A stretch of DNA of 64,000 nucleotides, taken from UHGV virus genome UHGV-0084588; one strand, given 5' to 3'. This stretch comes from a virus. The notes beneath the pieces were generated by a model, which was not told the DNA's origin, searched no databases, and saw only the letters and a list, made by a program, of their open reading frames with translations. The number at the start of each line of letters is the position of its first letter. Positions within the stretch are counted from its first letter, which is position 1. A program made the position numbers and the translations under genes. Of the stretch, positions 9,714-54,323 are shown piece by piece.

Positions 9714-12026
9714 GTGGAATACATTTCTCCTTTTCGTTTAACGGTAGATGAATACCATCGTGATATTGATGTCAATGATGCCTACCGCGAACAGGTCGCG
9801 TTATACATTCATAACGTGACAGCACAAAAATACCCTTTAGAATTTTGTCGTCAGGAAGTCGATGCTCTTATTGCTCCTGGCGGTGAGTTAGCAACCGAAT
9901 CACCCGTGTGTAAGATGTGGGTGCGAAATCAGAAAACGGGCGATCGTGAGGAAAAATACACTACCGTCGATAAGCTATTTAAAACCGTCATTGACAAACA
10001 GATTATCTCCGCACCTTCGTTAACTTTTTATTTGCCCGAACACGTCAAACGTTCTAAGTTGTCTGAATTCACAGCAGCTAACGTAGCGAAACGTGCTGCG
10101 GTAAAAAAGGAAATGTTTGCAGCAGCAGCAGCGGGCAATGAAGTATTAAAGATCAACAAAAAGAACGAACAGAATGCGGTCAAGACGCTGAACAACGGTA
10201 TGTCTGGTGCATTCTCCTCTCCGTACACGATTATTTTCAACCAGTCTTCACACTCCGTACTGACGTCCACTTGCCGTACTGCAACTTCGTTCGGCAATGC
10301 TGGAAACGAACGTTTATTAGGAGGTAATCGTCATTACGATACCCCGTCACGCATTATTGATCATTTCTTATCTATCGGTACTTTAACCGATTGGAATAGC
10401 TTTAAGAAATGTATGGAGACGTATGAGCTTCATTACCCGTCGGTAGAAGAGGTGATGGAAGTTATTCACTATTCTGCTGATTTCTACTTTAAGAACGAAG
10501 AGGGGATGGAGTTCGTTGAGCATTACGTTAGTAATGTATCACCGTTGACGCGTGCCGCGTTTGTTTACATGGGTGATTTTTTCCACCTGGCTAAATACAA
10601 CGATAAGTTCATGCGCGACTTTATTGGTGCATTAATTACCCCTGAAGCGCGAGTTGATACTGAGGGCTGGACTGATACGGACTGGGTTGCTGCTGAGAAG
10701 ACCATCGATGGTGATATGCAGATTATTATCTCACAGTTCCGTACCGACGTAGTACCGATGGGTAAAGCGTTCAGTGACGTTAAGAAACTTGACGGTAATA
10801 AAAAACCCTTGCCGTGGGATCAGCAGGATGGCTATAAAGAACTAATTCGTTCCGCGCTGTTCTTACAGAAAACGATCGGTAAATACGCACTACTGATTCG
10901 TAATATTCTTACCACGAAAAACTTACCAATCAACATTGCTCGAATGCCGGATGTGGTTCGTCGTGTAGGCGTAGTATCTGATACTGACTCTACAATGATG
11001 ACTGCGCAATGGTGGGCAATCTGGTACACCGGTAAACATTACGGTGAGATAGCGACCCGCGTTTCCAATGCGATGATCTATATTGCGACACAGCACTTAC
11101 GGCATTTGATGGCGAGTATGTCAGCAAACATCGGCGTGGCGAAGGAGCGCTTGTTCCTGTATGCAATGAAGAACGAATTTAAGTTTGATTCGTTTGCATT
11201 GACTACCAAAGCAAAACATTACTTCTCACTGATTACCGGTCAGGAAGGCCAGCTGAAAAAAGATCCCGAGCTGGAAGTAAAAGGTGTGTCTTTACGCACA
11301 TCTAACATTCCTCCGATTATCATGAAGGAATTTAAGAACACTATCAAAGGGCTATGTGAAGTTGTTGCCCGTGGTGATCAGATCGAAATCATTCCGTTAC
11401 TGGAAAAGGTTGCCCAAATCGAACACACGATTATGGATTCTATTCGTTCTGGAAATCCAGGGTATTTGAAAACGACGAACATCAAGGAACGTAGCGCTTA
11501 TAACGAGAAGGATGAGAAGAACTACCATTACCATCGAATGTATAATGCTATCTTTGGTCCGAAGTTTGGTTATTTGGAAGAACCGCCGTACGATGCTGTG
11601 AAACTTCCGGTAACACTGGAAAACAAAACGAAGATTAAAGAATGGATTGACGGTATCGAAGATCCGATCATCAAGAACGGCGCATCGGCGTGGTTTGAGG
11701 AGACAAACTTCCGTAAATATAAAACATTGATTCTACCAGAACACTTGGTGGAAAACTACGGTATCCCTAAAGAGCTTATCGATATCGCAGATATCCGTCG
11801 TACTGCTTTCTCTACGGTTGAACCGTACTATCACATTCTCGAATGCTTAGGTGTGTTCATGATGGATAAAAACAGGATGAGGTTGTTGTCAGATTTCTAC
11901 GATAAAACCGAGGAGAAAGACGAACTGTATAAGGAATTAGCGGAAGTACAATACGTTAAGAAATCGGAGAGGGCAGGGGATGACGAAGAAGACGATGACG
12001 AAGAAGAGGTTTTTGACGACGAATGA
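9714..12026 (+). CDS. putative family-B DNA polymerase, C-terminal (polymerase) fragment, with acidic C-terminal tail
   Basis: Motif B-like KTLNNGMSGAF, motif C VVSDTDS, KKRY-like KAKHY; no exonuclease motifs or motif A in this ORF; GTG start with agagg RBS; B-to-C spacing is unusually long. Confidence 0.45.
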   Translation: MEYISPFRLTVDEYHRDIDVNDAYREQVALYIHNVTAQKYPLEFCRQEVDALIAPGGELATESPVCKMWVRNQKTGDREEKYTTVDKLFKTVIDKQIISAPSLTFYLPEHVKRSKLSEFTAANVAKRAAVKKEMFAAAAAGNEVLKINKKNEQNAVKTLNNGMSGAFSSPYTIIFNQSSHSVLTSTCRTATSFGNAGNERLLGGNRHYDTPSRIIDHFLSIGTLTDWNSFKKCMETYELHYPSVEEVMEVIHYSADFYFKNEEGMEFVEHYVSNVSPLTRAAFVYMGDFFHLAKYNDKFMRDFIGALITPEARVDTEGWTDTDWVAAEKTIDGDMQIIISQFRTDVVPMGKAFSDVKKLDGNKKPLPWDQQDGYKELIRSALFLQKTIGKYALLIRNILTTKNLPINIARMPDVVRRVGVVSDTDSTMMTAQWWAIWYTGKHYGEIATRVSNAMIYIATQHLRHLMASMSANIGVAKERLFLYAMKNEFKFDSFALTTKAKHYFSLITGQEGQLKKDPELEVKGVSLRTSNIPPIIMKEFKNTIKGLCEVVARGDQIEIIPLLEKVAQIEHTIMDSIRSGNPGYLKTTNIKERSAYNEKDEKNYHYHRMYNAIFGPKFGYLEEPPYDAVKLPVTLENKTKIKEWIDGIEDPIIKNGASAWFEETNFRKYKTLILPEHLVENYGIPKELIDIADIRRTAFSTVEPYYHILECLGVFMMDKNRMRLLSDFYDKTEEKDELYKELAEVQYVKKSERAGDDEEDDDEEEVFDDE

Positions 12027-13485: not shown

Positions 13486-13528
13486 ACCAACACTACAATT
13501 GTATTAAACCTTATAAGGATTAAGTAAA

Positions 13529-15376
13529 ATGGCTAAAGAGTTTATTGACAATCAAAACGACGTTGTGACTGGTGCTGCTGGTTCTGCTGCAGATCCAATT
13601 CCGTCTTTCGGTGGCGCGGGAGCTGCTACTGTGGATAATACCAATGCGGCCAACGCTTTTGGTGGGATGTCTAAAAACATCTCCACTTTCGATAAAGCTT
13701 TCGGATACATGTCTTTCGTGTCCACTGCTTCTCAGTTCACTAGCCTGATTGAGAAGATGGCGGAGAAGAACACATACCTGCGTAACTTCCGTTGGGGTGT
13801 CATTGACGGCATCAACTCTGAAATGGGTTCTGCTGCATACGTGGCTGGTCCGTCCGGCGATAACCATAACGAATGGCTCTACGGCATCCTGTTCTTTGAA
13901 CATGGCCAGTCCATCCGTTTCTACGAAATCAACGGTAAAGAAAACTACTACACCCTGGCGCAGCTGTTCAGTCAAGAAGGTGTGATGAACAACATCACTA
14001 ACCAGATTGCAACTCAACACAATCTGCCGAGCGTACAGTTCATGGTAATGAACTGCGTACCGGAACTGGGTAAAACCATGAACGAAGAATGGGCTAACCA
14101 GCTCATGGGCCAGATTGCACTGGGTATCTTCGGTCGTCATTCTGGCTACCTGGGCTACCTGAAAATGACCCGTTCTGATCGCTTCACCGCGCAAGTTAGC
14201 GTAGTTGAAGAAGGTTCTGTAACTGACGTTAACGGTTCCGCACAGCGTGCTGACCTGATGGTTGTGGTTGACCATACTCGTACCGGCAACAACGATAATA
14301 ACCCGACGCTGTTCTCTTCTGAACGCCTCCAGAATTATCCGAGCGTTGCAGGTGTTGGTTACATCAACCTCCGCCATAAAGGTAAACCTCAGACTCTGAC
14401 CAACGGTACTCAGGACCTGCGTCAGCTGGAAGCCGAAGTGGTTGTTTCCCTGATGGATTCTCAGTCCTCTGGGGCAATGGCACCTATCGAGCGTCAGCTG
14501 ATTGAACTGGCCGCGTTCGCACAAATCGCCACTATCGGTGGCTGGCGTGAACGTTTCATGCAGTCGCTGAACAAAACCGATCGCCGCTTCTCCCGCGTTC
14601 TGGAGTATGTAGAATGGGGCAGCGAAAAACCTGACCTGAGCAAAATCGACGGTAACCGTGAAGTTATCGAGAAATGCCTGGACACCTTCGCTAACCCGAC
14701 TGCAGCTCTGGTGGTGAACCATCGTGCAGGTAACGGTATCGGTGGTCTGTCTACTCTCCTGAGCGAAATCGGGATGGGTAACACCAACGCACTGTACACC
14801 CTGTTCAACATCCTGGATAACATGGCCAGCAACGGTGCGACTAAGTTCAGCACTCGCTTCAAAGCACTGCTGGGCAATGTCACCAACTTCGAGTGCAAAC
14901 ACGTTGTTATTGCCGGTTGCCCGACCATCTCTGGCCAGTATTTCAGCAACAGCCAGAAACGTAGCTTCCAGGATATGGACTTGGTTTCCGCTCTGACTAA
15001 AGTGGGTGACAACCAACGCGATGCGATCGACTACATCAGTGCACAGTCCTACTCTCACCGCTATCTGAATGCGCGTGACCAGCGTCTGTACCTGCTGAAA
15101 ATGGCTGCGTCCATGTTCGGTAGCAAACAGCCGCAGGTAACGGGTGAAGCGTCTGACCTGGCGATCAATCCGTTGTTTGGTAAGGCACTGGTGGAATACA
15201 TCACCGAAAACTGCAACTTCCAGGTGAACGGTGTTACCGCAGCGAACAGCCTCACTCACTCTGTGTTTGTTAACACGGGTAATGAGAACTTCGCTCTGTC
15301 TGGTAGCGGTCCTAACGCATTTGGTAGCGATTTCGGTATGTCCTTCGCTGCAACTGACTGGCGTCCGACTTTCTAA
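13529..15376 (+). CDS. abundant 615-aa protein; candidate phage nuclear-shell (chimallin-like) protein, alternatively a major capsid protein
   Basis: Strong bias to E. coli-type optimal codons; tandem promoter repeats upstream; strong terminator downstream; lies directly upstream of the RNAP beta-prime N-terminal gene, which from memory matches the phiKZ gp54-gp55 arrangement. Confidence 0.45.
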   Translation: MAKEFIDNQNDVVTGAAGSAADPIPSFGGAGAATVDNTNAANAFGGMSKNISTFDKAFGYMSFVSTASQFTSLIEKMAEKNTYLRNFRWGVIDGINSEMGSAAYVAGPSGDNHNEWLYGILFFEHGQSIRFYEINGKENYYTLAQLFSQEGVMNNITNQIATQHNLPSVQFMVMNCVPELGKTMNEEWANQLMGQIALGIFGRHSGYLGYLKMTRSDRFTAQVSVVEEGSVTDVNGSAQRADLMVVVDHTRTGNNDNNPTLFSSERLQNYPSVAGVGYINLRHKGKPQTLTNGTQDLRQLEAEVVVSLMDSQSSGAMAPIERQLIELAAFAQIATIGGWRERFMQSLNKTDRRFSRVLEYVEWGSEKPDLSKIDGNREVIEKCLDTFANPTAALVVNHRAGNGIGGLSTLLSEIGMGNTNALYTLFNILDNMASNGATKFSTRFKALLGNVTNFECKHVVIAGCPTISGQYFSNSQKRSFQDMDLVSALTKVGDNQRDAIDYISAQSYSHRYLNARDQRLYLLKMAASMFGSKQPQVTGEASDLAINPLFGKALVEYITENCNFQVNGVTAANSLTHSVFVNTGNENFALSGSGPNAFGSDFGMSFAATDWRPTF

Positions 15377-15403
15377 TAAGTTGGTAAGTAGTAAGCAGTA
15401 GTT

Positions 15404-15447
15404 GAGGGACAGGGGAAAACCCCCTGTCCCTTCCCTCTCTTTTTTTG
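15404..15447 (+). terminator. rho-independent terminator
   Basis: hairpin gagggacagggg-aaaa-cccctgtccc followed by T-run. Confidence 0.7.
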
Positions 15448-15460
15448 TTGAGGATTCGGC

Positions 15461-16828
15461 GTGGAACATAAACTAGAATATTACGGGATTTCAGGGCGAC
15501 TAATTAGTCACGATAAAATGCTACGTGACTGTATACAAGAAGCGGAGGAAAAAGGCTACAAACCCCCGATTATTATCAATGACGTTGCTGCAACGATGGA
15601 TACCATCGAAGCGTCAGAGATGATTAACCAAATACTTCAAAACCGAATCGTTGATGAAACACTCAACTCGGCTCCTATTTGCAGTCTGACCTGCGAATCA
15701 CCTATTACCCATCGTTATAATCTTGGGTTACGTTGCCCACATTGTGGTCATGTTGTTTCTGAACATCGGATTACGTCCGAAGTTTGGCTACGTGCACCCG
15801 ATGAGATAGGTAACTTTATCAATCCACGTTTTTGGTCTCTCTTTAATGCTTTCTTTGGCTCTAAGCTGAAAAAATTTAATCGTAACAAAGTGACGGTAGA
15901 GCGTGGTTCTGATTTGCTGCTATGGCTAATCGATCCGTACTACCATCCAGAAAAGGACGAAGGAACACGTGCTCGTGTGGTGAAAAGAATCCTCAGCGAA
16001 CATGGTTTCGAACGGGGAATTCGAAACTTTATCGACCACCATCGAACCGTCTTTAATATCCTTACGTCCCCGGAAGCTTGGAAGGAGATTTATCCACCGA
16101 CGAAAAACAACCGTTATGAGAGTGAACGCGTACGCTTAGAATGGCGTGAGTTCTTTCAGGAACAATCGTTCTCATTCTTTCCAAGACACCTTCCGATTAT
16201 TTCATCGAAACTGATCGTTACAGAGGAGCGCCGACAAGGTATCTTTATCGATCCCGTTTACACCAGTGCCATCGATGCAGTAAAAAATGTGGCGTTGTTG
16301 TACACGAATGCACGTCGTATCGAACCACGATTTATTATTCGTCGCGCGATCAAAGCGAATCGACAACTTGCGTATTTCTATATTGACCATCGTCAGGAAG
16401 TGATGGAAGGTAAACCTGGGTTCTATCGGGCAAAACTCGGGTCAACGCACGTACCGTGGGGCGGACGTGTGACTATCTCTCCTATCTCTGAACCTCACGA
16501 TGCGTTGAAAGTTATTGCGCCTTGGCGTTGGTTAGTTCCGTTGGCGAGTGTTCACATTGAGAACAAGTTAGGTCGACGTGACTACACACCTCGACAGTGT
16601 GAACGAATTATTGCATTCGCGGCAATGCAGTATGTACCGTTGGTACATGAAATTATTAATGAGCTGATTAAAGAATCCCCCGGCGGATTCGGTTTAATGT
16701 TGGAAGTTCTACGTAACCCAACATTGGTTCAGCTTTCTATTCAGACATTGTTTATCTCGGCGGTACTGACAGATGTAACACAATGTTCTCTGCGTATTTC
16801 TGATCGCGTCATCAAAGCACCTAATGCT
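15461..16828 (+). CDS. RNA polymerase beta-prime-like subunit, N-terminal fragment, exon 1
   Basis: Zn-ribbon C-x4-C...C-x2-CG; GKPGFYRAKLG...GGRVTISP matches [41 protein letters not shown] matches NRAPTLHRLGIQAF; ends ...KAPNA where bacterial beta-prime has YNA|DFDGD; GTG start. Confidence 0.75.
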
Positions 16829-18475: not shown

Positions 18476-19144
18476 ATGGATCAAGAACCGGGAAAATTTA
18501 ATGGGGTGCCCATTGAAGAACTTTCTGGCCGTGCTAAGTTTGAGTTTGAGAAACTTCTTGAAATGGAAGAGATGCTTAAACAGGGCCAGGGTGTGTGCAG
18601 CGTGTTTACTGAATCGATGTTCCGTCGACAAGGTTTACCGCTGTTGTCGGGGATGCTGGATGGTACGTTTAACGAAGATACCTGGACGGATTATGTAGGG
18701 AGCGCTTTCGTTCCGTTACAGATTGTTTCGGATTCGGATAATTCAAAACTGCTCTTTACGATCCCGCCTCTGCTTAATACCGGTCGGTCACTTCAACATG
18801 TTGACGGTCAGCCATCGCTCACCGAAGAAACAGAGATGATTCGCCAGCAAGCCGATATCATTTCCGAGGTCGGTGAACGGCAGATGTATCAGATGATCGA
18901 TTATACGCTGGATGGTATCGAACAGTTATCGTACGAAGAAAATGCACTTCGTGCAAAACAGGTTATCGATCTGTTAAACTGGATCTTCCGTCGTTATAAC
19001 GTATCAGGGCAATTACCTTATCCTGAAGGACTTGAAGAATTGTGCAACCGTATCCAAGGACGAAAGAAACCTGCAACGGCGGCACAACCTGAACAGTCCT
19101 CCCCTGCTAAGGGAAGAAGAATCATCGATGAAGAGGATTACTAA
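18476..19144 (+). CDS. hypothetical protein (222 aa)
   Basis: ATG with taagg RBS immediately after upstream stop. Confidence 0.55.
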   Translation: MDQEPGKFNGVPIEELSGRAKFEFEKLLEMEEMLKQGQGVCSVFTESMFRRQGLPLLSGMLDGTFNEDTWTDYVGSAFVPLQIVSDSDNSKLLFTIPPLLNTGRSLQHVDGQPSLTEETEMIRQQADIISEVGERQMYQMIDYTLDGIEQLSYEENALRAKQVIDLLNWIFRRYNVSGQLPYPEGLEELCNRIQGRKKPATAAQPEQSSPAKGRRIIDEEDY

Positions 19145-20276
19145 TCCGCCACCGAAACCAGTTGGCGTCAAACGCATTTTCTCAACGGGCGATGTACATT
19201 TACTGCACCGTCGTGTACCGACGTGGCATATTGTTAACGTGCTCAAGGAAACCTTAGAACGGTTCGATAATACGATTGACGCTATTTATATAGCTGGCGA
19301 TTTATTTGATGATTCCCGGCATTTGCGGCAAGAAGATTCTCAAGAAGCCATAGGGTTTTTAACCTGGTTATTGCTCTGGGCCAAACAGACGAATACCGCT
19401 ATTCGTGTCTTGGAAGGAACACCCTCCCACGATCATAAACAATCGAAAATCGTTGAAGAGTTAAATCAGGCGGTGAGTGCAGATTGTTTGTATCTGGATA
19501 AGATTGGGGTGTTTTACGACGAGGCGTTAGGAGCGACTATCGGTTGGGTCCAGGACGAGTATAAAGCCCTGGGTTCTGAGTCTATTGATGCTGCCGCAAC
19601 AGAACAGGAAATGGCTGAATTATTAGCCACGCGCGGTATACAGCAGATGGATTTCTGCTTTATGCATGGCTGCTTTCAGTTCCAAGTTCCCGTTGAGTCT
19701 ACCCGCTTTTTCCATACAGATTTTTGGGAACCGTTAGTCAAGCATTTGATTATCATCCACCACGATCATCGTAGGAAACAATTGGGTAAGATTCGTGTAC
19801 CAGGCAGCCCCGATCGCCTGGCAATGGGTGAAGAAGAGGACAAAGGCTTTGCTATTGTCGATTTCACTCCTGATTTAGCCAGGGATTATTTCTTGGTTAA
19901 TGAACGCGCTTGCCCGCAGGTTAAAATTGCTGCGGAGGAGGACTACGAATCGCAGTACGCGAAATGTCTCTCTGCGCTTGAGTATATTGATACTCATCCG
20001 TCCTCGGTAATAGGACGATTGGAAATTGAATATTATCCCGATTCTCCATTGGCGGAAGCCATTACTCGGTGGAAATCGCAATATTCATTCCATATTTCAG
20101 GTACGCGTATACGTACGCCTGAAGAGGAGCAAATTCTCGCAGCCGGTTTTGCTATCGACGCAGAGGTCGAGGAAACCATCTCTGAAGAGAATGTTGAAGC
20201 GATTTTGTTAGAAGCATTAGTGCCGTTTAAATACGATGCACAAATTGTCACTGACATTATCAGGAGCATCAAATGA
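19128..20276 (+). CDS. calcineurin-like metallophosphoesterase, Mre11/SbcD-like nuclease candidate
   Basis: Motifs GDVHLL (D-x-H), AGDLFDD (GDxxD), GTPSHD (GNHD-like) in canonical order; start taken at in-frame ATG 19128. Confidence 0.5.
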   Translation: MKRITNPPPKPVGVKRIFSTGDVHLLHRRVPTWHIVNVLKETLERFDNTIDAIYIAGDLFDDSRHLRQEDSQEAIGFLTWLLLWAKQTNTAIRVLEGTPSHDHKQSKIVEELNQAVSADCLYLDKIGVFYDEALGATIGWVQDEYKALGSESIDAAATEQEMAELLATRGIQQMDFCFMHGCFQFQVPVESTRFFHTDFWEPLVKHLIIIHHDHRRKQLGKIRVPGSPDRLAMGEEEDKGFAIVDFTPDLARDYFLVNERACPQVKIAAEEDYESQYAKCLSALEYIDTHPSSVIGRLEIEYYPDSPLAEAITRWKSQYSFHISGTRIRTPEEEQILAAGFAIDAEVEETISEENVEAILLEALVPFKYDAQIVTDIIRSIK

Positions 20277-21109
20277 CCCCAATCAGTGTTGATCGCACGT
20301 TTGGGTTTTATCAAATGTCAATTGCTACATCGTTGGCTTTTGAAGGGCTTCTCCATGAAGGAGAATATGCCGATTGGAAGGGTCCTGTCCCTATCCACAA
20401 GTATCAGGATATTTACCTGAATCTACGGACGTTGTTCCGTAACGCGTTTTACGCGTTTGAAACGAATCGTGAACGATTAACACCTGAAGTGTTGCTGGCA
20501 TCGATTGAAGAAGATATTGCTTCTATTAACGCTACCGCGAAAGCGGTAGCGCCTTCGGTGCTATGTGTCCCCTATATCTGTACGTATAAAAGTGCGAACA
20601 GAGTCTTTCCAGAAGCAGCGTTCCGTACGATCGCAGGCGGGCAGGAAAAGATGACACCTAACCAGCATCACTTTAATGCGTTAGAACACGATACGTTAAA
20701 GTTATACGGTGAAAAATATCCTGAACAATTCAAAAGCTTTGATGTGTTTCCGAAAGGACAGCACGACACGTTGATTTTAACCCATTACCCTGCCGATCTG
20801 CTGGCCTACAAAGATTTCCCGCTGTTGAATTTGTTAGAATCACACACGGGGAAAATTAAAGGTCGGTTAGAATGGTACACGAAGCTTTACGGTAAACCCG
20901 AACAGATCCCGTTTAACAAAGCGTTCCTAACGCTATTTGGCGATGGGTATATGTTCTCCCCACTTGACAGAAAGGTTCGTAAGGTGGTGTTGAATACTGC
21001 CGAGAAATACCACTGGCGACAAGATACGACCATGGATCGTATTTACAGTTGCTTGAAGTTGGTTAACGAACCCTTTGTCATTGAGTTCCTTCGTAGATTG
21101 TCTCGCTAA
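20273..21109 (+). CDS. hypothetical protein (278 aa)
   Basis: ATGA overlap with upstream gene; caggag RBS. Confidence 0.55.
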   Translation: MTPISVDRTFGFYQMSIATSLAFEGLLHEGEYADWKGPVPIHKYQDIYLNLRTLFRNAFYAFETNRERLTPEVLLASIEEDIASINATAKAVAPSVLCVPYICTYKSANRVFPEAAFRTIAGGQEKMTPNQHHFNALEHDTLKLYGEKYPEQFKSFDVFPKGQHDTLILTHYPADLLAYKDFPLLNLLESHTGKIKGRLEWYTKLYGKPEQIPFNKAFLTLFGDGYMFSPLDRKVRKVVLNTAEKYHWRQDTTMDRIYSCLKLVNEPFVIEFLRRLSR

Positions 21110-21167
21110 TTTTACAGATCGTTTTGTTAGTTTGAGCACTCCGAAAATGTAAAAATAGGATAAGTAA

Positions 21168-21812
21168 ATGGTCAATAAAAACTTCCTTAAAGAGAAATGG
21201 CTTTACCCACAGACTGAGCCGGATCAACAGGGCCGTACCCGTAAACTGGGCATTGAATTGAACGAATTCAATGGTGATGTGGAACTGATGAAATTCCACT
21301 ACTCCTTTGGTAAAGGCGAAGGTCTTTATTTCACCGCAGGCTATACTGTTTGCGTTGATATCTTTGAAACCCTGCGTACGGTGATGCAGAAACCCGAAAA
21401 AGTCGTTTTCAAATGGGAAGATGCAAAAGGTAAGAAGGCACCGGTTAGCTTACACGTAGGTCGTGATGAAAACCTGACACCGTTCTTTGCACTGAGCGGC
21501 GAGATCCCAGGGGTTGGTGCGCGTCAGAAGAAATTCTATTTCACTTATCCGAAAGGTTATCGTGTTTTCCGTAATGGACAACTGGTCTCCGATCTGGAAC
21601 TGGCAGAGCGTCAACTACGCGCGTTCCTGAAAAATGCGGATGTATTCCTGGAAGATTTCCGTGACAACTACAAACCGCGCGAGTTTAATAACGCGGGTGG
21701 TGGTAGTTACGGTCGCGGAGGTTACAATAACGGCGGCAATGGCGGCGGTTATAACAACCAGTCTGGTGCAAAAGCCCCAACACCAACTAACGATTTTGAC
21801 GATATTATTTAA
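21168..21812 (+). CDS. putative ssDNA-binding protein, or nucleic-acid-binding protein with an RGG/Gly-Tyr low-complexity linker
   Basis: C-terminal Gly-rich linker GGGSYGRGGYNNGGNGGGYNN and acidic tip NDFDDII resembling E. coli SSB tail DFDDDIPF; strongly optimised codons. Confidence 0.4.
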   Translation: MVNKNFLKEKWLYPQTEPDQQGRTRKLGIELNEFNGDVELMKFHYSFGKGEGLYFTAGYTVCVDIFETLRTVMQKPEKVVFKWEDAKGKKAPVSLHVGRDENLTPFFALSGEIPGVGARQKKFYFTYPKGYRVFRNGQLVSDLELAERQLRAFLKNADVFLEDFRDNYKPREFNNAGGGSYGRGGYNNGGNGGGYNNQSGAKAPTPTNDFDDII

Positions 21813-21831
21813 ATAACGTAAAACTATAACA

Positions 21832-21862
21832 TAGCCCCAGGATATCCTGGGGCTCTTTATCG
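21832..21862 (+). terminator. terminator-like hairpin
   Basis: agccccagg-atat-cctggggct followed by a short T-rich stretch. Confidence 0.5.
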
Positions 21863-21894
21863 TGTATGTGTGTAGAATACAGTCGAAGTTATCT

Positions 21895-21911
21895 GAGATA
21901 GATTTTATCTT
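21895..21911 (+). promoter_or_regulatory. candidate promoter/operator, TAGAT-TTT-ATCT palindromic variant
   Basis: gagatagattttatctt about 35 bp upstream of ATG 21946. Confidence 0.3.
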
Positions 21912-21945
21912 AGTGCACGACTATGCTATTCCTGGAGATTTTAAA

Positions 21946-23574
21946 ATGCGTATTGAAAAGAATCGTGACCGTTTAGTGATAAAATACGGTGAAAAGGAGG
22001 TCGCGTTTAATGGTTTCCGAAACGGACGTAAAGACGTGAATGTGCCAGACGTACGCGATAGTTTCGGACAGATCGTAACGCATGATAAAATCATGTTCAT
22101 GGAAATCGATCGTTATTGGTCAACTTTAACGCCCGAAGAGAAAAGCGAACTGTTTTCAGTTTACGAAGAATTAGAGTTGTTAGCTAATGAACCCCCAGAA
22201 GTTATTCGTGAACACGTTCCCACACTCGTCGCGAGAATTGCTAAATTTCATCACGCAGATAGATTCCGCCAGCTTTATCCACACGGCTCGGTGTGGATTC
22301 CTCAAAACGTCCACGAAACGTACGAAGAGATGTCGTCGAATTATCCAAAAGAGATGACGTATATTGTACAAGATTATTACGAACTGGTGATTTTGTCTTT
22401 GATGACAAAACCGTTTATTCCAGTATTCTTGATTTTGGACGCTTTTCCTGCAACACGTGCTTCTGTTGAGTCGAAGCGCAAAAGTGTTTATAACCTGACC
22501 TACTGCATGGAGCTATTGTCGGATACCGAGATTGCCACGCTGCCTGCCATTACAAAGTTGCGTGAGTTTTTAGTGTCGGTGATTTCGAAAGTTCAAGACG
22601 GGGGCAGTAAAGGACCCAATACTGCAAATCTTACCGTCCTGGCATCTATCTGCGGCTACGGCACGGATATGGTAGAGGAATACATCGTAGCGTTCGCTGT
22701 TATCCGTTTAATTGCGATGAAGTTAATCGGTGCCGAGCTACCACCGGGTACGATGGTTGAAAACAACATCGTGGCGGGAATGTATTTCAATATTCGACAA
22801 GAAATTGAAACTGGCTTCGCGGGAAAAATTTCCGGTCAAAACGTGATGCTAAAAGCGAATCCTGAGAAAATCATGTTCAACGGCGAGAAGGGGAAAACTT
22901 CGTCGATTGACTTGGTTCAGGCTCGGACTAAAGCACCGATGAAAGAATTCGTTCGTACCCAAGAATTCTTTAATGACTACCGTCGTGCGGTGCGTGCTTT
23001 GAATCTCGATATTGCTCCCGCAGATGTGAAAGTGCTGATAGATTCTATCAACATTAATCATCAGTATCCGTTCTACGAACTCTACGAATGGTTGGTGGCG
23101 GCAGTGATGCACCGATTTGCAGATCGTCGTACATACAAGGAAATCGACTCGGAAGCATTTAAGAACGCGATGGGTATATCCCAAGCCGTTTACATCTATT
23201 ACGGAATGCCTGAGATTGCGCAGCTGTTAAGTTGTGAGATGATCCGGGCACCGCTAAATGGCGGGTATCCTATCGAACCGATCGATAATGAGATTAAAAT
23301 AAAAACGGATAGATATTATCCACAGGCATACCGTAAGCATCGTAATACTTACGAACAGTCAACGTTGAAGGATTCTCTCAGCTTGTTGGTTCGTGAGCAT
23401 ATTGCACCGTTCAACTTCAATCTCAGGGCAACACCGGAAGCAGCCAGAATGTTACGGTGTGGGACAGTGATGTTGGACTATTCGCCTCATCCGCGACTTC
23501 AGAACATGTTAGCAGAATTTCTGTTAATTCAAAACAGAAAGAAATGTGAAGAAGTGGCATGGTTTAATCAATAA
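21946..23574 (+). CDS. hypothetical protein (about 542 aa)
   Basis: ATG at 21946 with ggag RBS, chosen over ORF-track start 21862. Confidence 0.5.
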   Translation: MRIEKNRDRLVIKYGEKEVAFNGFRNGRKDVNVPDVRDSFGQIVTHDKIMFMEIDRYWSTLTPEEKSELFSVYEELELLANEPPEVIREHVPTLVARIAKFHHADRFRQLYPHGSVWIPQNVHETYEEMSSNYPKEMTYIVQDYYELVILSLMTKPFIPVFLILDAFPATRASVESKRKSVYNLTYCMELLSDTEIATLPAITKLREFLVSVISKVQDGGSKGPNTANLTVLASICGYGTDMVEEYIVAFAVIRLIAMKLIGAELPPGTMVENNIVAGMYFNIRQEIETGFAGKISGQNVMLKANPEKIMFNGEKGKTSSIDLVQARTKAPMKEFVRTQEFFNDYRRAVRALNLDIAPADVKVLIDSININHQYPFYELYEWLVAAVMHRFADRRTYKEIDSEAFKNAMGISQAVYIYYGMPEIAQLLSCEMIRAPLNGGYPIEPIDNEIKIKTDRYYPQAYRKHRNTYEQSTLKDSLSLLVREHIAPFNFNLRATPEAARMLRCGTVMLDYSPHPRLQNMLAEFLLIQNRKKCEEVAWFNQ

Positions 23575-23604
23575 TTTTCGGCTTGACCTAAAGGAGTATT
23601 TACA

Positions 23605-25311
23605 ATGGCAATGAAACTTTTGAAACTGCAAATGTATCCGGTGTACGAAATCCCAGAGCAGATTCGTCGTCGTATCGGGTTCTTTGAATCGCAGCACGCT
23701 TTGGATGAGTTAGTGGATGTGGTCGCAGAGCACGGTGATAAAGCAACAGGTTCTCGGGCTTATCAAGAAGCCCTGGGTCAGATTGTGGGCTTCGATAATA
23801 CTCCAACCGGTATTGAACGCCCATTCATTAACGTGAGCGATAATGAATCACAGCCAATCCACTTTGCGTATAACTCTCGCGATACGGGTGTGTATAACTT
23901 CGTGGCGATTATTGTTTCGAACTCGTTAAATGACACACGGACTCAAGAAACGCGTTATGTTGTTTCTGGGTATACATCTCAGGCAGAGCGGTCTATGTTT
24001 AATCACCTGCCGGATGACATGGTTCTGTATATCAACGAAATATACGGATTACAATGTACGTATATCACCGATGCGTTTGGTGGGCGTCGTATCAACCCGG
24101 ATTCTTTCCGTCTGATAGACAACTATGTGTTGTCCAAGACACTAACTGCGGACAGTTATGTGGAACACACCATCGACGTTATTTCTACCGCGAAAGCGGC
24201 TGATATGGTACGTAAAGTGGTGAAGGCAGGCGAACAGATTGAGCTGGATAATAACACGGTTATCTCCGCTAATTGCCAGCGTGCGCCACAGTTGATGTCT
24301 AGTCAATTAACCCGACCGGAATCTTTCGTGACGGCAATCTCCAATTCCTTTATTAACACCATGGGGATTGAAACGGAGCTGAGCGCAGTAGATAGTTTCT
24401 TCGCAGGAGATCATTCTCTTGGGGTAGAATCTGAACTTAGTCAGATCGGCGTGATGCGTAACTTCAATAGTTACGAATTGGTGAAGGCGTTTAGAACAGC
24501 CATATCCAACGCCACGTCAGATATGACTAGTGGTTGGAACGTTGCGAACCGTGCAGCATTTAAACTGTGTGACTTGCGTAATGCGGTGGTTAATCCCGAA
24601 GATGTGGATGCTGCAATTGCGCACTCGCTGGCTGTCGCGGCCCGTCGTGGTTTTGGTGAAATTGAACGCACCGATGATTGGGTAGGGCGTAATAACTATT
24701 CTACTCAGGGTTCATTAGTGGCGTTTGATTTAGCCATGTTACTGGGGCCTGTGGTCACCCGTAATCTTATCGGTGAAGTGACTTTCTTCTACGATAACCG
24801 TATGGCGGATATTGCAACACCTCCTCTGCTGCAAGTGTCAAAACACAACGTTGGGGCATTAACTGAAGACGGATTACCGGATGTGTTAGCACGTCGCTTC
24901 TTAAGTGACTTACAAGGCGTATTCTTGCAAGTGACTAAACATAACCGTATTCGTTGTAAGATGACTGTAACGTGTATCGTTGGGGTGGTTTCGCGTATTG
25001 AAATCGAAATCGATGGCGAGCTGCCTGAGTATTATACACATGCGTCGTTCATGAAAGCACGTCTGCATTGCGGTACAACAACTGACCTTCAGTACACGAA
25101 CCAGTTAGCTGCAGAAACAGCACAGCTGATGAATAAAGTGGAAGAAGGGTACCAAGAATTCAACCGTGGTCAGAACCGTTCGAATATCCTGTCGAATATT
25201 CCAACTGCCCCTGTGTCTGCGCCTACAAGCCTGGGTAGTTTCGGTAGCTTTGGCGGCAGCGATATGTCAACGCCTGTGCCAGTGTCTGGCTTTGGTGCAT
25301 TCGGCGAGTAA
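23605..25311 (+). CDS. hypothetical protein (568 aa) with C-terminal FG-repeat tail
   Basis: Conserved RBS context ctaaaggagtattta; C-terminus SLGSFGSFGGSDMSTPVPVSGFGAFGE. Confidence 0.6.
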   Translation: MAMKLLKLQMYPVYEIPEQIRRRIGFFESQHALDELVDVVAEHGDKATGSRAYQEALGQIVGFDNTPTGIERPFINVSDNESQPIHFAYNSRDTGVYNFVAIIVSNSLNDTRTQETRYVVSGYTSQAERSMFNHLPDDMVLYINEIYGLQCTYITDAFGGRRINPDSFRLIDNYVLSKTLTADSYVEHTIDVISTAKAADMVRKVVKAGEQIELDNNTVISANCQRAPQLMSSQLTRPESFVTAISNSFINTMGIETELSAVDSFFAGDHSLGVESELSQIGVMRNFNSYELVKAFRTAISNATSDMTSGWNVANRAAFKLCDLRNAVVNPEDVDAAIAHSLAVAARRGFGEIERTDDWVGRNNYSTQGSLVAFDLAMLLGPVVTRNLIGEVTFFYDNRMADIATPPLLQVSKHNVGALTEDGLPDVLARRFLSDLQGVFLQVTKHNRIRCKMTVTCIVGVVSRIEIEIDGELPEYYTHASFMKARLHCGTTTDLQYTNQLAAETAQLMNKVEEGYQEFNRGQNRSNILSNIPTAPVSAPTSLGSFGSFGGSDMSTPVPVSGFGAFGE

Positions 25312-25333: not shown

Positions 25334-26713
25334 ATGAAAATTATTGAATTCTATAAATCGTTTCTTAAATCACAAGGATTCGATTTTGAAAACGATTTAC
25401 TCACTCGTGACGGTGGTGAACCGGCAGAGTTTACGTACAACAAAGTGAAGCGCCGTTTGGCGCTTCCTACCCCAGCGATGATTAAGCGCGGTATGGAAGA
25501 CGATGATGGGCGTGAATGTCAGGCTTTTCATCCGCTGTGCGAATCGGTGCTGGCAGGCGAATCAGGGACAATTCGTTTTCTGAAGAAATCCATTAATGCG
25601 AACCTGTTCATTCGTTCCTTTGCATTAATCGACGCGATTCTGGAAACGGGGGCAAGTGGCAAAGCAGTACGTTCAGCTTCCTACAAGAAGTTCTTAACAG
25701 AACAGATTTGCGAAGGGATGAAAGATCCGACGTTCGACGAACGTTTGGTGAAATCCTGGGAAGCGGTGAAAGCGTTCGTCTATGGGCAATTGGAAAAAGA
25801 TAAAAAGCACAAGATCACCCAGCTTTTTATTGCATCTGATTTAGTTATCGACGGCGTGAAGTTTAACCGTGTAGCTAATTATCGGAATATGTTCGAAGAA
25901 GAATCGTTAGATGGTACTGCAATGTACTTCTCTGCGAAGCTTCAACGTAAACAAGACAAAATCATTATCCATCGTTTATTGACCACTGTGTTCGGTTGGT
26001 ATCCGAGCGTAACGGGGTCTAATGATTCGCGTCCGTATTTCGGTTGCTTAGCACGTGGTTGGGCGCAGTACGTTGTGAATTATAACAACGTCGTTAAGGG
26101 ATTGCGCGACCACACATCTTTACGTCCGTTGGAAGATGAATGGATTTCTCAGCTGGACAATATGGATATTTACGATAACGTCATTCAGACTTTACCGTAT
26201 AACACCGGCCCACGTTCTGACAGCCCTGAACGTGATACCACGGCGCATGATTTCCGTATCGATCGTGCGCAGGCTCCGCAGCAGATTCCACAAAAACGTG
26301 CGTCGGATGCAGATAAAGCGGATAAGTCCGATCCGATGGAATTCTTCCGTGCTCGTGAACGTAACATGGCCACGCATAGTCCTTATGGGAATTTGACGCC
26401 AGCGATGCAACGTTACGCCGAGCAGCACGGAACAACTAACCCTGCCAACGGTATGGTAAGTCGAATTTCTGTTGTGGATGCGTTTGGTGGAGAGCGCAAG
26501 GTGTCACCTTTCGGTGGTCAGAGTAACTTCGGTGTAGGGAATACCGGAGGTTCTTTGGCAAGTACCTTTGGCGGAGGGAATAATTCTTTCAGCGGGAATG
26601 TAGGAGGGACTAGCGCGTTTAGCACGAGTTCAGCATTTGCAACGAATAGCAGTTTTGGCGGGCAGCCGCAAAGCAGCTTCGGTGGATTTGCAACTTCGCC
26701 ATTTACGCGCTAA
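25334..26713 (+). CDS. hypothetical protein (459 aa) with about 110-aa C-terminal FG/GFG-repeat low-complexity tail
   Basis: Tail: AFGG, PFGG, NFGV, TFGGG, SFSG, SSFGG, SFGGF separated by Ser/Thr/Asn/Gly spacers. Confidence 0.6.
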   Translation: MKIIEFYKSFLKSQGFDFENDLLTRDGGEPAEFTYNKVKRRLALPTPAMIKRGMEDDDGRECQAFHPLCESVLAGESGTIRFLKKSINANLFIRSFALIDAILETGASGKAVRSASYKKFLTEQICEGMKDPTFDERLVKSWEAVKAFVYGQLEKDKKHKITQLFIASDLVIDGVKFNRVANYRNMFEEESLDGTAMYFSAKLQRKQDKIIIHRLLTTVFGWYPSVTGSNDSRPYFGCLARGWAQYVVNYNNVVKGLRDHTSLRPLEDEWISQLDNMDIYDNVIQTLPYNTGPRSDSPERDTTAHDFRIDRAQAPQQIPQKRASDADKADKSDPMEFFRARERNMATHSPYGNLTPAMQRYAEQHGTTNPANGMVSRISVVDAFGGERKVSPFGGQSNFGVGNTGGSLASTFGGGNNSFSGNVGGTSAFSTSSAFATNSSFGGQPQSSFGGFATSPFTR

Positions 26714-31515: not shown

Positions 31516-33225
31516 ATGTACGAATTCCACATGACCTTTACGAGTATGGGCGTGAGGGTCGAAGTCCCTTGTCGGCCCATAGAGTCGGCAATTTTAAAGT
31601 GGGCAGAAGAGAATATGCACGCCCCGAAAATGGGCAAACAATACGGAAGAATCATCACCGAACGTGGCGATCCGTATTACGCACATATTCCTTCTATCCG
31701 TACCTTTATATTCCACCGGAATTTTTCCGAACGTTTACGAATCATTATTAACCGAACGGCCGCTGAGTTTGCAATTGACTTCAAACTCTACGAGCACCAC
31801 TTAACCCAGGGAACACCTTACCGTTGTACGTTTGAAAACTATGGCTTTAAGATGATAGAAGAAGATGAATCGTCGCGCTTCTTTTATCAGAACGGCGTTG
31901 TAGAAACGGCGTGCCAGCCGAACCGGCTGCAAACCATCTTTGAGATTGGTACAGGGATGGGTAAGTCGAAGACGAACATGAAAGTGATGGTTCGTAAAGG
32001 GGTAAGAACGTTATTGATCCATCGACCCACGTACATTTCTAAATGGTTATTCGACTTAACGGAAGATCCCACCGGACTTCGTGAATCGAAAGAAGACGTC
32101 TTGGTTATACAGGGCGTACAAGCGGTCTACGAAGCGCTAGAAATGGGTGAAAGTGGTGAGTTGGATAAACGTGGCATCAAAGTTATTATCGTCTCTACAG
32201 TGACGCTACAGCGGTTTTTGAAAGAGTATATCAATACCGCCGCGACTAATCCGGTGAATATCGACGATTTCTATAACACGTTAGGTGTTGGGTTTTTATC
32301 GATGGATGAAGTGCATGAACATTTCCACTTGGTGTACATGGCTGGAATTATGTTGAATCCGCCACCCTCTGTTGAAATGTCGGCTACACTCCAACCGGGT
32401 GAATCGAAAGCGTTCTTGGCAGAACGGTATAAAGAACGTTTCCCACAAGAGGCACGTATCACCATTCCGATTATTCCTGCGGTACACGTGAAAGCGTTGT
32501 ATTACCGGATTGAGAATAAACGGTTTGCGTGGTGGGCATCGAAAATGACCCCGTACAACCACAAACTATTTGAAGGGAAGTTGATTAGCGAAAACCTTCA
32601 TCAGTCGTACGCGGATATGGTCTGGGATGTAATAGAACGCACGTATCTGGCAGGGTATCAACCTGGTCAGAAAGTGTTGGTGTTGTTTGCAACTGTCGCG
32701 ATGTGCGAGTTCTTTACGGAGTATGTGCGAGAGAAGCTTGCACAATCCGATAAGTTCCACGCTTTGATGGTTGCGAAATATAACGCAGGAGATTCGTATG
32801 ACGACTTCATTCAAGCGGATTTCTCTATTTCAACACCAGGGAAAGCGGGTACTGCGGTTGACAAACCGGGGTTGGTTCACATGTACATTACCACCCCTGT
32901 GGAAGACCAGCAGTTAAACCGTCAGATGGCCGGACGCCCACGTAAGATCCTCCACAACGACTGGGGTGAACTCGATCCCGTTGTGTGGTTATTCCATTCT
33001 TACTCGATACCGAAGCATTGTAATTACTTGAATGCGCGTCAAAAATCACTGAGTGATTCTGTGTTGTCGTTTAAGATAGCCACCTCACCGTATATTGTAA
33101 GGAAAGCTGATGTTACTACCGCCGCAGCCAACAGAGCCAACCGCGCCGTATGCCGGTCTGAACTTAGCAAGTTTTCTCGAAAAAGTTTTAAAGGCGTATC
33201 CCGACGTTTTAGACGTCGTAAATAA
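31516..33225 (+). CDS. SF2 (DEAH-type) helicase/ATPase
   Basis: Walker A GTGMGKSKT, Walker B/motif II DEVH, motif III SAT, motif VI QMAGRPRK in canonical order; 3' end overlaps next ORF so true stop region is uncertain. Confidence 0.65.
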   Translation: MYEFHMTFTSMGVRVEVPCRPIESAILKWAEENMHAPKMGKQYGRIITERGDPYYAHIPSIRTFIFHRNFSERLRIIINRTAAEFAIDFKLYEHHLTQGTPYRCTFENYGFKMIEEDESSRFFYQNGVVETACQPNRLQTIFEIGTGMGKSKTNMKVMVRKGVRTLLIHRPTYISKWLFDLTEDPTGLRESKEDVLVIQGVQAVYEALEMGESGELDKRGIKVIIVSTVTLQRFLKEYINTAATNPVNIDDFYNTLGVGFLSMDEVHEHFHLVYMAGIMLNPPPSVEMSATLQPGESKAFLAERYKERFPQEARITIPIIPAVHVKALYYRIENKRFAWWASKMTPYNHKLFEGKLISENLHQSYADMVWDVIERTYLAGYQPGQKVLVLFATVAMCEFFTEYVREKLAQSDKFHALMVAKYNAGDSYDDFIQADFSISTPGKAGTAVDKPGLVHMYITTPVEDQQLNRQMAGRPRKILHNDWGELDPVVWLFHSYSIPKHCNYLNARQKSLSDSVLSFKIATSPYIVRKADVTTAAANRANRAVCRSELSKFSRKSFKGVSRRFRRRK

Positions 33226-51579: not shown

Positions 51580-51610
51580 GGGGGCCCCTCATTCTAGGGG
51601 CGTGTAATTG

Positions 51611-51622
51611 GGTTATATAACC
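51611..51622. promoter_or_regulatory. perfect 12-bp palindrome GGTTATATAACC (candidate promoter/operator)
   Basis: 17 bp upstream of ATG 51639; AT core TATATAAC resembles the TATATTAC element. Confidence 0.3.
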
Positions 51623-51638
51623 AAAGGAAATAAACGAA

Positions 51639-52910
51639 ATGGCAAATTTCGCAAAAACTCGCGCCGCTCGTGAATCGATGGAAGCGGCCGATGAAGTAAT
51701 CGACGGTATCAGCAACGTTGAACCGGCAGAAGAGAACCTGGACGTCCAACTTGCGGACGTTGCATCTATCGACGGTCAGCTCGATCAGCTGGAAACCGAC
51801 GGTGAAACCCTGGCTGCCGATACCGAGCGTACTGAAGACGCTATCGAACAGGCGGAAGAAGCCGTTGCTAACGGTGAAGAAATGCCGGAAGAAGCGGTTG
51901 CCCTGCACGAAGTGGCACAGGAATCCATCGCACGTCGTTGGTGCCTGGAACGTACTAAACTGGCTCGCGAATCCTATCGTCGTGGTCGTGGTATGACTGC
52001 TGCTGCCCAGGAAGGTTGGAAAGAAACCCTGAAAGATCTTTACGATCGTTTCATTCAGTTCTGTAAAGAAGTGATTGCGAAGATCAAAGACCTGAAACTG
52101 AAATATTTCAACGTCGGTAAGACTGCACAGAAACGTGCGAAGAAATATCAGGAAATGCTGCGTAAGCTGGGCAAACAGAAGAAAGATGAGATCTCCGGTG
52201 GCTTTATCACCAAGCTGTCCATCGAAGGTAAATTCGATGCTGCTGGCTCCATCGCTATTGCGAAAGAAGTTACCGCTGGTAAAGCTAAAGGTTCCATCAG
52301 TGTTCTGGAAAAACAAGCTGGCGAAGCTGTAACTGCTGTTGCCAAAGGTGACGATGACGCATTCAAAGCGATGCGTGGCGATCAGCCGGTAGAACTGTTT
52401 GGTAAAGCTGCGTCTAAACTGCGCTCTCTGCCGAACTTTGAAAAAGGTGATGCGTCTAAACTGCTGGCTCTGCCGGGTAACGCATACGTCCAGGCTGGTA
52501 CTAAAGAACTGGCTGGCGGCCACAAGTTCACCGCAATTGCATTCATGAGCACTGGCGACGCTTCTGACGATAAAGACGTGAAAACTCCGTCTGTTTCTGA
52601 AATGGCTGGTGCTGCTTCTGCTCTGGAAGCGATCGGTAAAGGCTTCGAAGCTGTACTGAAAGATTTCCGTGCTTATGACGCCGAAATCGTGAAGCTGCAA
52701 CAGGCTGCTGAGAAAGCTGCTAACGCGCTGAACAACGAAAAAGACGAAAGCAAATGGGATGGCCTGCGTAACGCACGTCAAGCTGCTGATTGGTCTGTTA
52801 AGAACTACCAGACCCTGAACCGCGCCGTTAGCTATGTTGCTAACACCGTTATTAGCGGTCTGAACGGCTACCTGGGTGCTGGTATCGGTGCTTACGAAAA
52901 GTCTAAATAA
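51639..52910 (+). CDS. abundant acidic protein, paralog A (423 aa); function unknown
   Basis: Strongly optimised codons; shares N-terminus MANF..ARESME, internal RKLGKQKKDEISGGFI and C-terminus GLNGYLGAGIGAYEKSK with 52993. Confidence 0.65.
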   Translation: MANFAKTRAARESMEAADEVIDGISNVEPAEENLDVQLADVASIDGQLDQLETDGETLAADTERTEDAIEQAEEAVANGEEMPEEAVALHEVAQESIARRWCLERTKLARESYRRGRGMTAAAQEGWKETLKDLYDRFIQFCKEVIAKIKDLKLKYFNVGKTAQKRAKKYQEMLRKLGKQKKDEISGGFITKLSIEGKFDAAGSIAIAKEVTAGKAKGSISVLEKQAGEAVTAVAKGDDDAFKAMRGDQPVELFGKAASKLRSLPNFEKGDASKLLALPGNAYVQAGTKELAGGHKFTAIAFMSTGDASDDKDVKTPSVSEMAGAASALEAIGKGFEAVLKDFRAYDAEIVKLQQAAEKAANALNNEKDESKWDGLRNARQAADWSVKNYQTLNRAVSYVANTVISGLNGYLGAGIGAYEKSK

Positions 52911-52992
52911 TAATTTAGATTCGTAGTTCCGTACAGTTCTTGAAATAAATCATCAGGGGAACAACGCGTTCCCCTTAGAGGAAAAGCTTAAA

Positions 52993-54258: not shown

Positions 54259-54275
54259 TCTCTGATTGTTTAGTA

Positions 54276-54323
54276 AGAGAACCACCCTGTAATGGGGTGG
54301 TTCTCTCTTTTCTTTTTTTTTTC
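54276..54323 (+). terminator. rho-independent terminator
   Basis: hairpin gagaaccaccc-tgtaat-ggggtggttctc followed by a long T-run. Confidence 0.75.

Follow-up and report, generated by a model that had tools for sequence, protein, structure and literature searches.

A probable ChmC (Imp6) ortholog with an SSB-like C-terminal tail in a relative of the phiEaH2/SPN3US-type jumbo phages

The locus and the identity of the gene

The 64,000-nucleotide stretch of viral DNA analyzed here (UHGV virus genome UHGV-0084588; hereafter the window) carries, within a run of genes colinear with the genome of phage phiKZ, a plus-strand open reading frame (ORF) encoding 214 residues (Table 1). It is present at exactly the position given by the initial annotation, which had been made from the sequence alone and had likened the product to the single-stranded DNA-binding protein (SSB) of bacteria. 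Our analysis indicates with high confidence that the gene is the ortholog of chmC (imp6) in a nucleus-forming jumbo phage (Chimalliviridae) of the SPN3US/phiEaH2-like type. The protein is neither a classical SSB nor a new kind of protein, the ChmC/Imp6 family being known already, and the possible new element is its SSB-like tail.

ChmC (Chimallin C) was described as the family of PhiPA3 gp61, phiKZ gp67, Goslar gp176 and 201phi2-1 gp123, with a predicted Whirly fold followed by a disordered C-terminus in which an N/G-rich part precedes an S/D/E-rich part (Enustun et al. 2024, NAR, PMC11077065). The window protein has the same layout, an N/G-rich linker with an acidic end following a Whirly-like domain, and this counts in favor of orthology. 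Both the window protein and phiKZ gp67, the latter taken from the phiKZ record, match PHROG 3284 over their full length (5e-51 and 6e-80, respectively), and four distant relatives recovered in an exhaustive profile search also match this family. When the domain profile of the SPN3US clade (A2) was compared by means of hhalign with an alignment of 13 phiKZ-clade orthologs (A3), the two aligned over 117 columns with a probability of 97% and an E-value of 1e-10. In BFVD, the best structural matches come from jumbo phages such as Eowyn, Miami and EL and share the length of the window protein; the Eowyn match, at 231 residues, is equal in length to the Eowyn ortholog extracted by sequence. Gene order is likewise conserved: five consecutive genes of the window belong to PHROGs 3229, 3284, 3209, 3141 and 3520, in the same order as phiKZ gp66-gp70, and in blastp comparisons the colinearity with phiKZ begins at gp50, the DNA polymerase, and extends to gp75, the helicase. 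In the window, the DNA polymerase is encoded at 9714..12026 and the helicase at 31516..33225. The gene lies in the same conserved gp65-gp70 block as its counterparts, beside the genes for Imp1/PicA and a non-virion RNA polymerase subunit. Orthology with phiKZ gp67, PhiPA3 gp61 and Goslar gp176 is established by these profile matches and by synteny. The window protein nevertheless differs from these ChmC/Imp6 proteins in being ~30-40 residues shorter, in a domain identity of <25%, in retaining few of the basic residues that bind RNA in PhiPA3, and in a tip of the short form DFDDII rather than FD(D/E)(D/E)(I/M)P(x)F.

Gene neighborhood and flanking signals

Two of the neighboring genes (Table 1) probably start within longer listed ORFs. 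The start of the SbcD-like nuclease gene is probably the ATG at 19128, inside a TTG ORF from 19032, because the size and the 17-nucleotide overlap of its SPN3US homolog (annotated as SbcD-like, 382 residues) point there. That of the gp68-like gene is probably the ATG at 21946, preceded by GGAG and inside a GTG ORF from 21862, since the PHROG 3209 match begins at residue 27 of the ORF. A terminator-like hairpin begins 21 nucleotides 3' of the chmC stop codon; the consensus scan of the region recovered 2 such sites against 1.2 expected.

Table 1. Coordinates of the chmC/imp6 locus and of other features of the window
Feature	Coordinates	Strand	Basis and remarks
Probable divergent chimallin gene (615 residues)	13529..15376	+	PHROG 8316; long antisense ORF
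Antisense ORF to the above	13523..15469	-	
SbcD-like nuclease, phiKZ gp65 counterpart	19128..20276	+	blastp 34.5% identity, E 3e-30
gp66-like protein	20273..21109	+	PHROG 3229 for ORF and phiKZ gp66; blastp E 2e-28
Putative ribosome-binding site AGGA	21157..21160	+	7 nucleotides 5' of ATG; read off sequence
Probable chmC/imp6 ortholog	21168..21812	+	ORF list; ATG 21168, TAA 21810-21812; 214 residues plus stop
Predicted Whirly/PUR-like folded domain	21168..21683	+	residues 1-172; three strands, helix, four strands, long helix (AlphaFold2 model)
Predicted disordered Gly/Asn/Tyr-rich linker	21684..21788	+	residues 173-207; RGG at 183-185
Acidic-hydrophobic C-terminal tip NDFDDII	21789..21809	+	residues 208-214
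Terminator-like hairpin AGCCCCAGGATATCCTGGGGCT then CTTTAT	21833..21854	+	9 pairs, 7 G-C; consensus match only
gp68-like non-virion RNA polymerase subunit	21946..23574	+	PHROG 3209 for ORF and phiKZ gp68
Imp1/PicA-like, phiKZ gp69 counterpart	23605..25311	+	PHROG 3141, 7e-128 (window) and 3e-179 (phiKZ)
gp70-like protein	25334..26713	+	PHROG 3520 for ORF and phiKZ gp70
Internal head protein	51639..52910	+	PHROG 2497, full-length 1e-147; long antisense ORF
Antisense ORF to the above	51597..52781	-	
Internal head protein	52993..54258	+	PHROG 2497, full-length 7e-120; long antisense ORF
Antisense ORF to the above	52978..54285	-	

The chmC gene contains 2 TTA, CTA or TCA codons in 215, the corresponding frequency being 28-47 per 1000 in 13 other counted genes; the chimallin-like and internal-head-protein genes, not included among these 13, contain no such codon. 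This scarcity fits the high abundance published for ChmC. Three genes of the window are covered by long codon-aligned antisense ORFs (395-649 residues), which exist because the sense genes contain zero TTA, CTA or TCA codons, a feature that probably reflects strong codon selection at very high expression. The plus-strand ORFs of the three pairs are real, as they match PHROG 8316 and, in two cases, PHROG 2497; no PHROG match was found for the antisense ORFs. The two members of PHROG 2497 are tandem internal head protein paralogs. The third gene lies between a gp50-like DNA polymerase and a gp55-like RNA polymerase beta subunit, where phiKZ has chimallin/ChmA. It belongs to PHROG 8316 ('unknown function') and not to PHROG 4795 ('nuclear shell protein'), which includes phiKZ gp54, and probably represents a divergent SPN3US-type chimallin that is unlabeled in the PHROGs.

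Relatives and phyletic distribution

Searches with tblastn recovered the window protein in 62 phage records, all of jumbo phages of ~200-250 kb infecting Erwinia, Salmonella, Escherichia, Cronobacter or Proteus. Its top relatives are from phiEaH2 (71% identity) and the SPN3US group (65%, SPN3US gp29), and in all matched records of the SPN3US/phiEaH2 group the gene is labeled 'hypothetical protein'. A megablast search of positions 20000-24000 against the phage collection gave no match, and the window is hence no phage already sequenced, at a nucleotide identity of about 85% or higher. On these comparisons, it derives from an unsequenced relative of the phiEaH2/SPN3US-type jumbo phages. The SPN3US counterpart (SPN3US_0029, gp29) lies downstream of an SbcD-like nuclease gene and a hypothetical gene, among genes for RNA polymerase beta subunits, and with 65% identity over the domain and the same neighbors it can be regarded as a direct ortholog. 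It is also the nearest tested relative, shown by genetics to be an essential non-virion protein in a study that listed neither a function nor a match in phiKZ for it (Thomas et al. 2016, PMC5105663). Its link to ChmC is made here, by way of the profiles and synteny described above.

When the domain alone was used as a profile to search 1.84 billion representatives exhaustively, 17 hits were returned in all, and no link to OB-fold SSBs or to cellular Whirly proteins emerged. Apart from three fragments with scrambled or truncated sequence and two long proteins matched weakly and in part (P0024, 1040 residues; P0029, 2217 residues), the hits are phage-like proteins with the same layout. The database protein P0014 (Salmonella phage SPFM9, SPFM9_00272) consists of 20-residue blocks of an SPN3US-type ChmC in reverse order, which is an artifact of the public record, as would arise from 60-nucleotide lines written in reverse order, and not biology; P0022 and P0023 show similar block scrambling, as judged by eye. 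Another database protein, P0001, differs from the window protein by a single residue and heads a cluster of 152 member sequences with the source 'lgn', presumably the Logan assemblies of sequencing runs. A partial protein, P0008, is 91% identical and filed under Escherichia coli. These two entries hint at E. coli as a host of the phage or of a close relative, or at contamination of such samples by it.

Structure of the N-terminal domain

The initial annotation had found the N-terminal domain not recognizably similar to bacterial SSB, and this is borne out by our searches. A Pfam scan of the protein gave only a sub-threshold RhlB low-complexity match, and a sequence search of the PDB gave only Gly-rich matches of the linker type, with none to the N-terminal domain. 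Neither membership in the bacterial-type SSB family (PF00436) nor membership in the plant Whirly family (PF08536) can be assigned, given that the OB-fold domain and Pfam match expected of the former and the sequence features of the latter, including the KGKAAL motif, are lacking.

An AlphaFold2 model built on an 11-sequence alignment (A1) has a confident domain with the topology given in Table 1; for residues 1-172 the block-mean predicted local distance difference test score (pLDDT) is 75-95, with 102 residues at 90 or above and the domain mostly above 90. The chain is predicted to be disordered from residue 174 onward (pLDDT <50 for residues 174-207). A Foldseek search of the PDB placed human and fly Pur-alpha and SsgB first, with weak E-values (best 8e-3), and in the two structure searches no SSB or named OB-fold protein was seen among the listed top hits. 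These scores are moderate but agree with one another, and the modeled domain is of the Whirly/PUR-like fold; an OB fold was rejected on the same matches.

The best structural matches of the domain thus lie in the Whirly/PUR/MRP superfold, which includes plant Why, Pur-alpha and the Trypanosoma brucei proteins MRP1 and MRP2. Its members bind single-stranded DNA or RNA on β-sheet surfaces, and the Whirly and MRP proteins form tetramers. The window domain differs from them in that its first repeat has three strands rather than four, and we know of no Whirly/PUR/MRP family with an SSB-like linker and tip. Among phage single-strand-binding proteins, T4 gp32 and T7 gp2.5 have OB folds, unlike the window protein, and the PC4-like protein of T5 shows weak structural similarity to it. 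T4 gp32 and T7 gp2.5 do have acidic tails with hydrophobic ends. The published roles of ChmC differ from those of all three phage proteins, being concerned with RNA and protein traffic.

The C-terminal tail resembles that of bacterial SSB

The last 42 residues of the window protein are FNNAGGGSYGRGGYNNGGNGGGYNNQSGAKAPTPTNDFDDII, with a single RGG motif. A compositional scan, in which the linker was taken from residue 167, gave G 31%, N 21%, Y 10% and a single acidic residue, and the three Asp and both Ile of the tail all fall within the last six residues. The Ssb of E. coli K-12, translated from the fetched gene, ends in ...SNEPPMDFDDDIPF, its final residues being PPMDFDDDIPF. By the same measures its linker has G 30%, Q 19%, P 14% and one acidic residue, and is followed by MDFDDDIPF. 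The window tip NDFDDII and the SSB tip DFDDDIPF have D-F-D-D-I in common, with the P-F end lacking in the former. The Gly/Tyr/Asn-rich linker, the RGG and the tip are therefore all present as the initial annotation had reported them, and its comparison with E. coli SSB was accurate. In structures of SSB with its partners the Pro-Phe end is central to recognition of the tip.

The significance of this resemblance was assessed in 35 full-length family members, with the 71 window ORFs of at least 100 residues serving as controls. At least two acidic and at least two hydrophobic or aromatic residues occur within the last eight positions in 32 of the 35 members, against 12 of the 71 ORFs. Stricter patterns separate the sets further: 17 members, comprising the window clade and its relatives, end in [FYIM][DN][DESNG][FIMVL][ILVFM], and seven from other clades end in [DES][DES][IVMLF]P.?[FWLM], so that 24/35 fit one or other pattern, against 1/71 ORFs, namely this gene. 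The window-clade motif at the C-terminus may be summarized as [FY]-D-[DES]-[FIMV]-[ILVF], and that of the other clades as FD[DES][DES][IM]P(x)F. The second pattern is seen in pEa_SNUABM_37 (GGFDSDIPF), SA002 (GFDESIPF), phiKZ (AFDEDMPSF) and PhiPA3 (GFDDEIPNF), and further in DT01 (FDDDVPL), LucasX (GDDDIPM) and RP31 (SDDIPW). The linkers, delimited by our own criterion, are 31-95 residues long (n=35) and made up mostly of G, N and Q, most of them with 0-2 acidic residues. Within the SPN3US clade, D211 of the tip and G177 and G179 of the linker are invariant. Between clades, domain identity falls below 25% and the linker varies in both length and sequence, with the positional pattern of the tip being kept. 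The RGG was considered as a conserved functional motif and set aside, the position of its Arg being R, K, G or S in homologs.

The SSB resemblance of the tail is real, is conserved family-wide beyond what chance would give, and is stronger in other clades than in that of the window. The published account of ChmC refers to a part of the tail as an 'electronegative cluster' without mention of SSB (PMC11077065), and SSB is likewise absent from two recent reviews that treat ChmC, although a mention elsewhere is possible.

The layout shared with bacterial SSB consists of a single-strand-binding domain, a Gly/Gln/Asn/Pro-rich and nearly acid-free linker, and an acidic tip with a hydrophobic end; the SSB-type homotetramer is matched by the PhiPA3 ChmC ortholog. 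SSB also forms condensates through its linker. The differences are that the domain is of Whirly/PUR rather than OB type and has no sequence similarity to that of SSB, that the PhiPA3 ortholog prefers RNA, and that the tip of the window protein has no Pro-Phe. The description of the protein as SSB-like therefore stands for the arrangement of linker and tip, which mirrors that of SSB, and fails for the fold and for the family, which is ChmC/Imp6.

Functional implications and a proposed mechanism

Experiments on the orthologs provide the basis for a functional prediction. PhiPA3 ChmC is among the most abundant early non-structural proteins, forms a homotetramer, and binds single-stranded RNA and DNA with dissociation constants (Kd) of 58 nM and 184 nM, respectively; its condensates need the C-terminal region, without which localization to the nuclear shell is lost (PMC11077065). 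Goslar ChmC formed puncta inside the phage nucleus and along the shell, and its knockdown resulted in small nuclei with less DNA, mRNA trapped in the nucleus, lowered levels of all phage proteins and plaquing cut to about 4%; a tail-less version supported nucleus growth and did not rescue the titer. The phiKZ ortholog gp67 binds Imp1 (gp69, PicA) directly, mass photometry fitting a 2:1 complex, and hence received the name Imp6 as a presumed component of the nuclear import complex (bioRxiv 10.1101/2024.03.27.586873). Gene 67 of phiKZ tolerates no transposon insertions and scored in an antisense-oligomer screen.

By orthology, tetramerization, binding of RNA and single-stranded DNA, condensate formation, shell localization and essentiality would be expected of the window protein as well, and the protein very probably binds single-stranded nucleic acids, its linker being disordered and its acidic-hydrophobic tip conserved. 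The initial annotation had also suggested that the protein might act as the replication SSB of the phage; the ortholog experiments instead indicate a protein that binds RNA and serves to export mRNA and import proteins at the shell. It had further proposed that its reading would be undone by the joint absence of nucleic-acid binding and of an OB-like fold: the predicted fold is indeed Whirly/PUR, but the PhiPA3 ortholog does bind single-stranded DNA, with the Kd of 184 nM given above.

We propose a mechanism in which the Whirly-fold domain would assemble into a homotetramer, by homology with PhiPA3 gp61, phiKZ gp67 and Goslar gp176, and would coat single-stranded nucleic acid without sequence specificity, with RNA preferred over DNA and phage transcripts as the main substrate. 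The Gly/Asn-rich linker would provide multivalent weak self-association and thereby condensates, and the tail would bring the protein to the shell of the phage nucleus. At the shell, Imp1/PicA, whose gene lies two positions downstream, and the non-virion RNA polymerase may be its partners in exporting mRNA and importing selected proteins. The tip is best viewed as a putative short docking motif with a free C-terminal carboxylate, which may dock on a shell partner, Imp1/PicA being the obvious candidate, or fold back on the basic nucleic-acid-binding surface of the protein itself. This reading of the tip is suggested by three observations, namely that its pattern is kept while the linker drifts, that removal of the tail abolishes shell localization, and that the direct partner Imp1/PicA is encoded two genes away. 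These mechanistic details are held with lower confidence than the identity of the gene.

Several observations weigh against this picture. The window protein and phiKZ gp67 give no significant match in a pairwise BLASTP comparison, and hence the case for homology rests on profiles and synteny; the same lack of significance explains why no phiKZ match was reported for gp29 in the 2016 SPN3US paper. A profile compared with the single phiKZ gp67 sequence reached a probability of only 51%. The AlphaFold monomer model docks the tip nowhere (pLDDT <50). Mutation of six basic residues abolished RNA binding in PhiPA3 ChmC (PMC11077065), and in our alignment of the 35 members only one of these six (K30, K48, K59, R35, R44 and R63) aligns with a basic residue of the window protein, K30 with R25. 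PhiPA3 R35 aligns with Glu30, and several acidic residues lie in the first β-sheet of the clade, although it is in this sheet that the alignment is least reliable and uncertain. The universally conserved positions, G98-R99, F123, F125 and G137, are all in the second repeat, with R99 being K or R in 35/35 members, and the net charge of the domain is +4, like that of PhiPA3 ChmC. As aligned, the nucleic-acid-binding surface may thus be shifted or different in the window clade.

Alternative interpretations of the SSB likeness

One alternative, which we consider unlikely, is that ChmC is also, or instead, the missing replication and recombination SSB of the chimalliviruses, a Whirly tetramer having displaced the OB tetramer while the SSB linker and tip were kept or converged upon, with the protein coating single-stranded DNA in the phage nucleus and the tip recruiting phage replication or recombination enzymes. 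No SSB was detected in phiKZ-like phages, to the surprise of the authors, who proposed non-orthologous displacement (PMC4889955), and group 1 jumbo phages were found to be without a classic OB-fold SSB (PMC7824862). The tetramer, the nearly acid-free G/N/Q-rich linker and tips such as GFDSDIPF, GFDESIPF and AFDEDMPSF, so close to DFDDDIPF, would suit the role. The 184 nM affinity of PhiPA3 ChmC for single-stranded DNA, its recovery by proximity labeling from the recombinase UvsX, the intranuclear puncta of Goslar ChmC, and the smaller nuclei with less DNA upon knockdown are also consistent with it, as is the position of the gene next to an SbcD-like nuclease gene and near those of the DNA polymerase and helicase. 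However, RNA is bound three times more tightly, and eCLIP (enhanced crosslinking and immunoprecipitation) shows binding to phage mRNA. Knockdown traps mRNA in the nucleus and reduces the levels of all phage proteins, an effect that could by itself account for the drop in DNA, and in PhiPA3 the protein is observed at the shell and in the cytoplasm. Tail-less Goslar ChmC still supports nucleus growth, implying that the tail is not needed for bulk replication, and the tip of the window clade is without Pro-Phe.

It is distinctly unlikely, in our view, that the SSB likeness is a by-product of low complexity and that the tail is only a condensate-forming region with a charge-balancing 'electronegative cluster', its tip having no role that depends on sequence. 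Loss of condensates was the explanation given for the tail phenotypes in the original study (PMC11077065), the Arg of the RGG is not conserved, and 3 of the 35 members (Goslar, XC31 and P0028) fail even the loose tip criterion, with 201phi2-1 passing it with a divergent end. Composition by itself does not account for the positional pattern kept in the last 5-8 residues across clades with <25% domain identity, for the fit of 24/35 members but 1/71 control ORFs to two tight patterns, for the invariance of D211 within its clade, or for hydrophobic residues being almost restricted to the extreme C-terminus, a feature for which an 'electronegative cluster' has no need.

Mimicry of the C-terminal peptide of host SSB is very unlikely. 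On this reading, which takes up a suggestion of the initial annotation, the tip would capture or divert proteins that bind host SSB, such as exonuclease I, RecQ, PriA, Pol III chi and topoisomerase III, whether as a cytoplasmic decoy or by bringing them to the phage nucleus. In its favor are the tips of several family members, which are nearly identical to that of proteobacterial SSB, the presence of some ChmC in the cytoplasm, and the import of a host topoisomerase, TopA, into the phiKZ nucleus through the Imp system, of which Imp6 is a part (bioRxiv 10.1101/2024.03.27.586873). Against it, the D-F-D-D-I-I end of the window clade has no Pro-Phe, and phage single-strand-binding proteins of unrelated kinds commonly have acidic tails with a hydrophobic end. 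[quoted passage not shown]

Conclusions

Assignment of the gene as a ChmC/Imp6 ortholog would replace the label 'hypothetical protein' with ChmC/Imp6 in this group of phages, and bears on PHROG 3284, which is currently labeled as of unknown function. The essential gp29 of SPN3US is now tied to a characterized function. Comparison of the tails points to a ChmC C-terminus that is not simply a low-complexity region for condensate formation but a linker joined to a conserved, SSB-like tip for docking. Since no SSB has been detected in phiKZ-like phages (PMC4889955), this tail offers a lead that can be tested. We give some, albeit limited, credence to the notion that ChmC is the long-missing SSB analog of the phiKZ-like phages and that the tip, not condensation as such, links it to its partners. 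If so, a single abundant protein would join the coating of single-stranded DNA and RNA with traffic through the shell of the phage nucleus, and the partners of its tip would be Imp1/PicA at the shell, phage replication and recombination enzymes, or hijacked partners of the host SSB.

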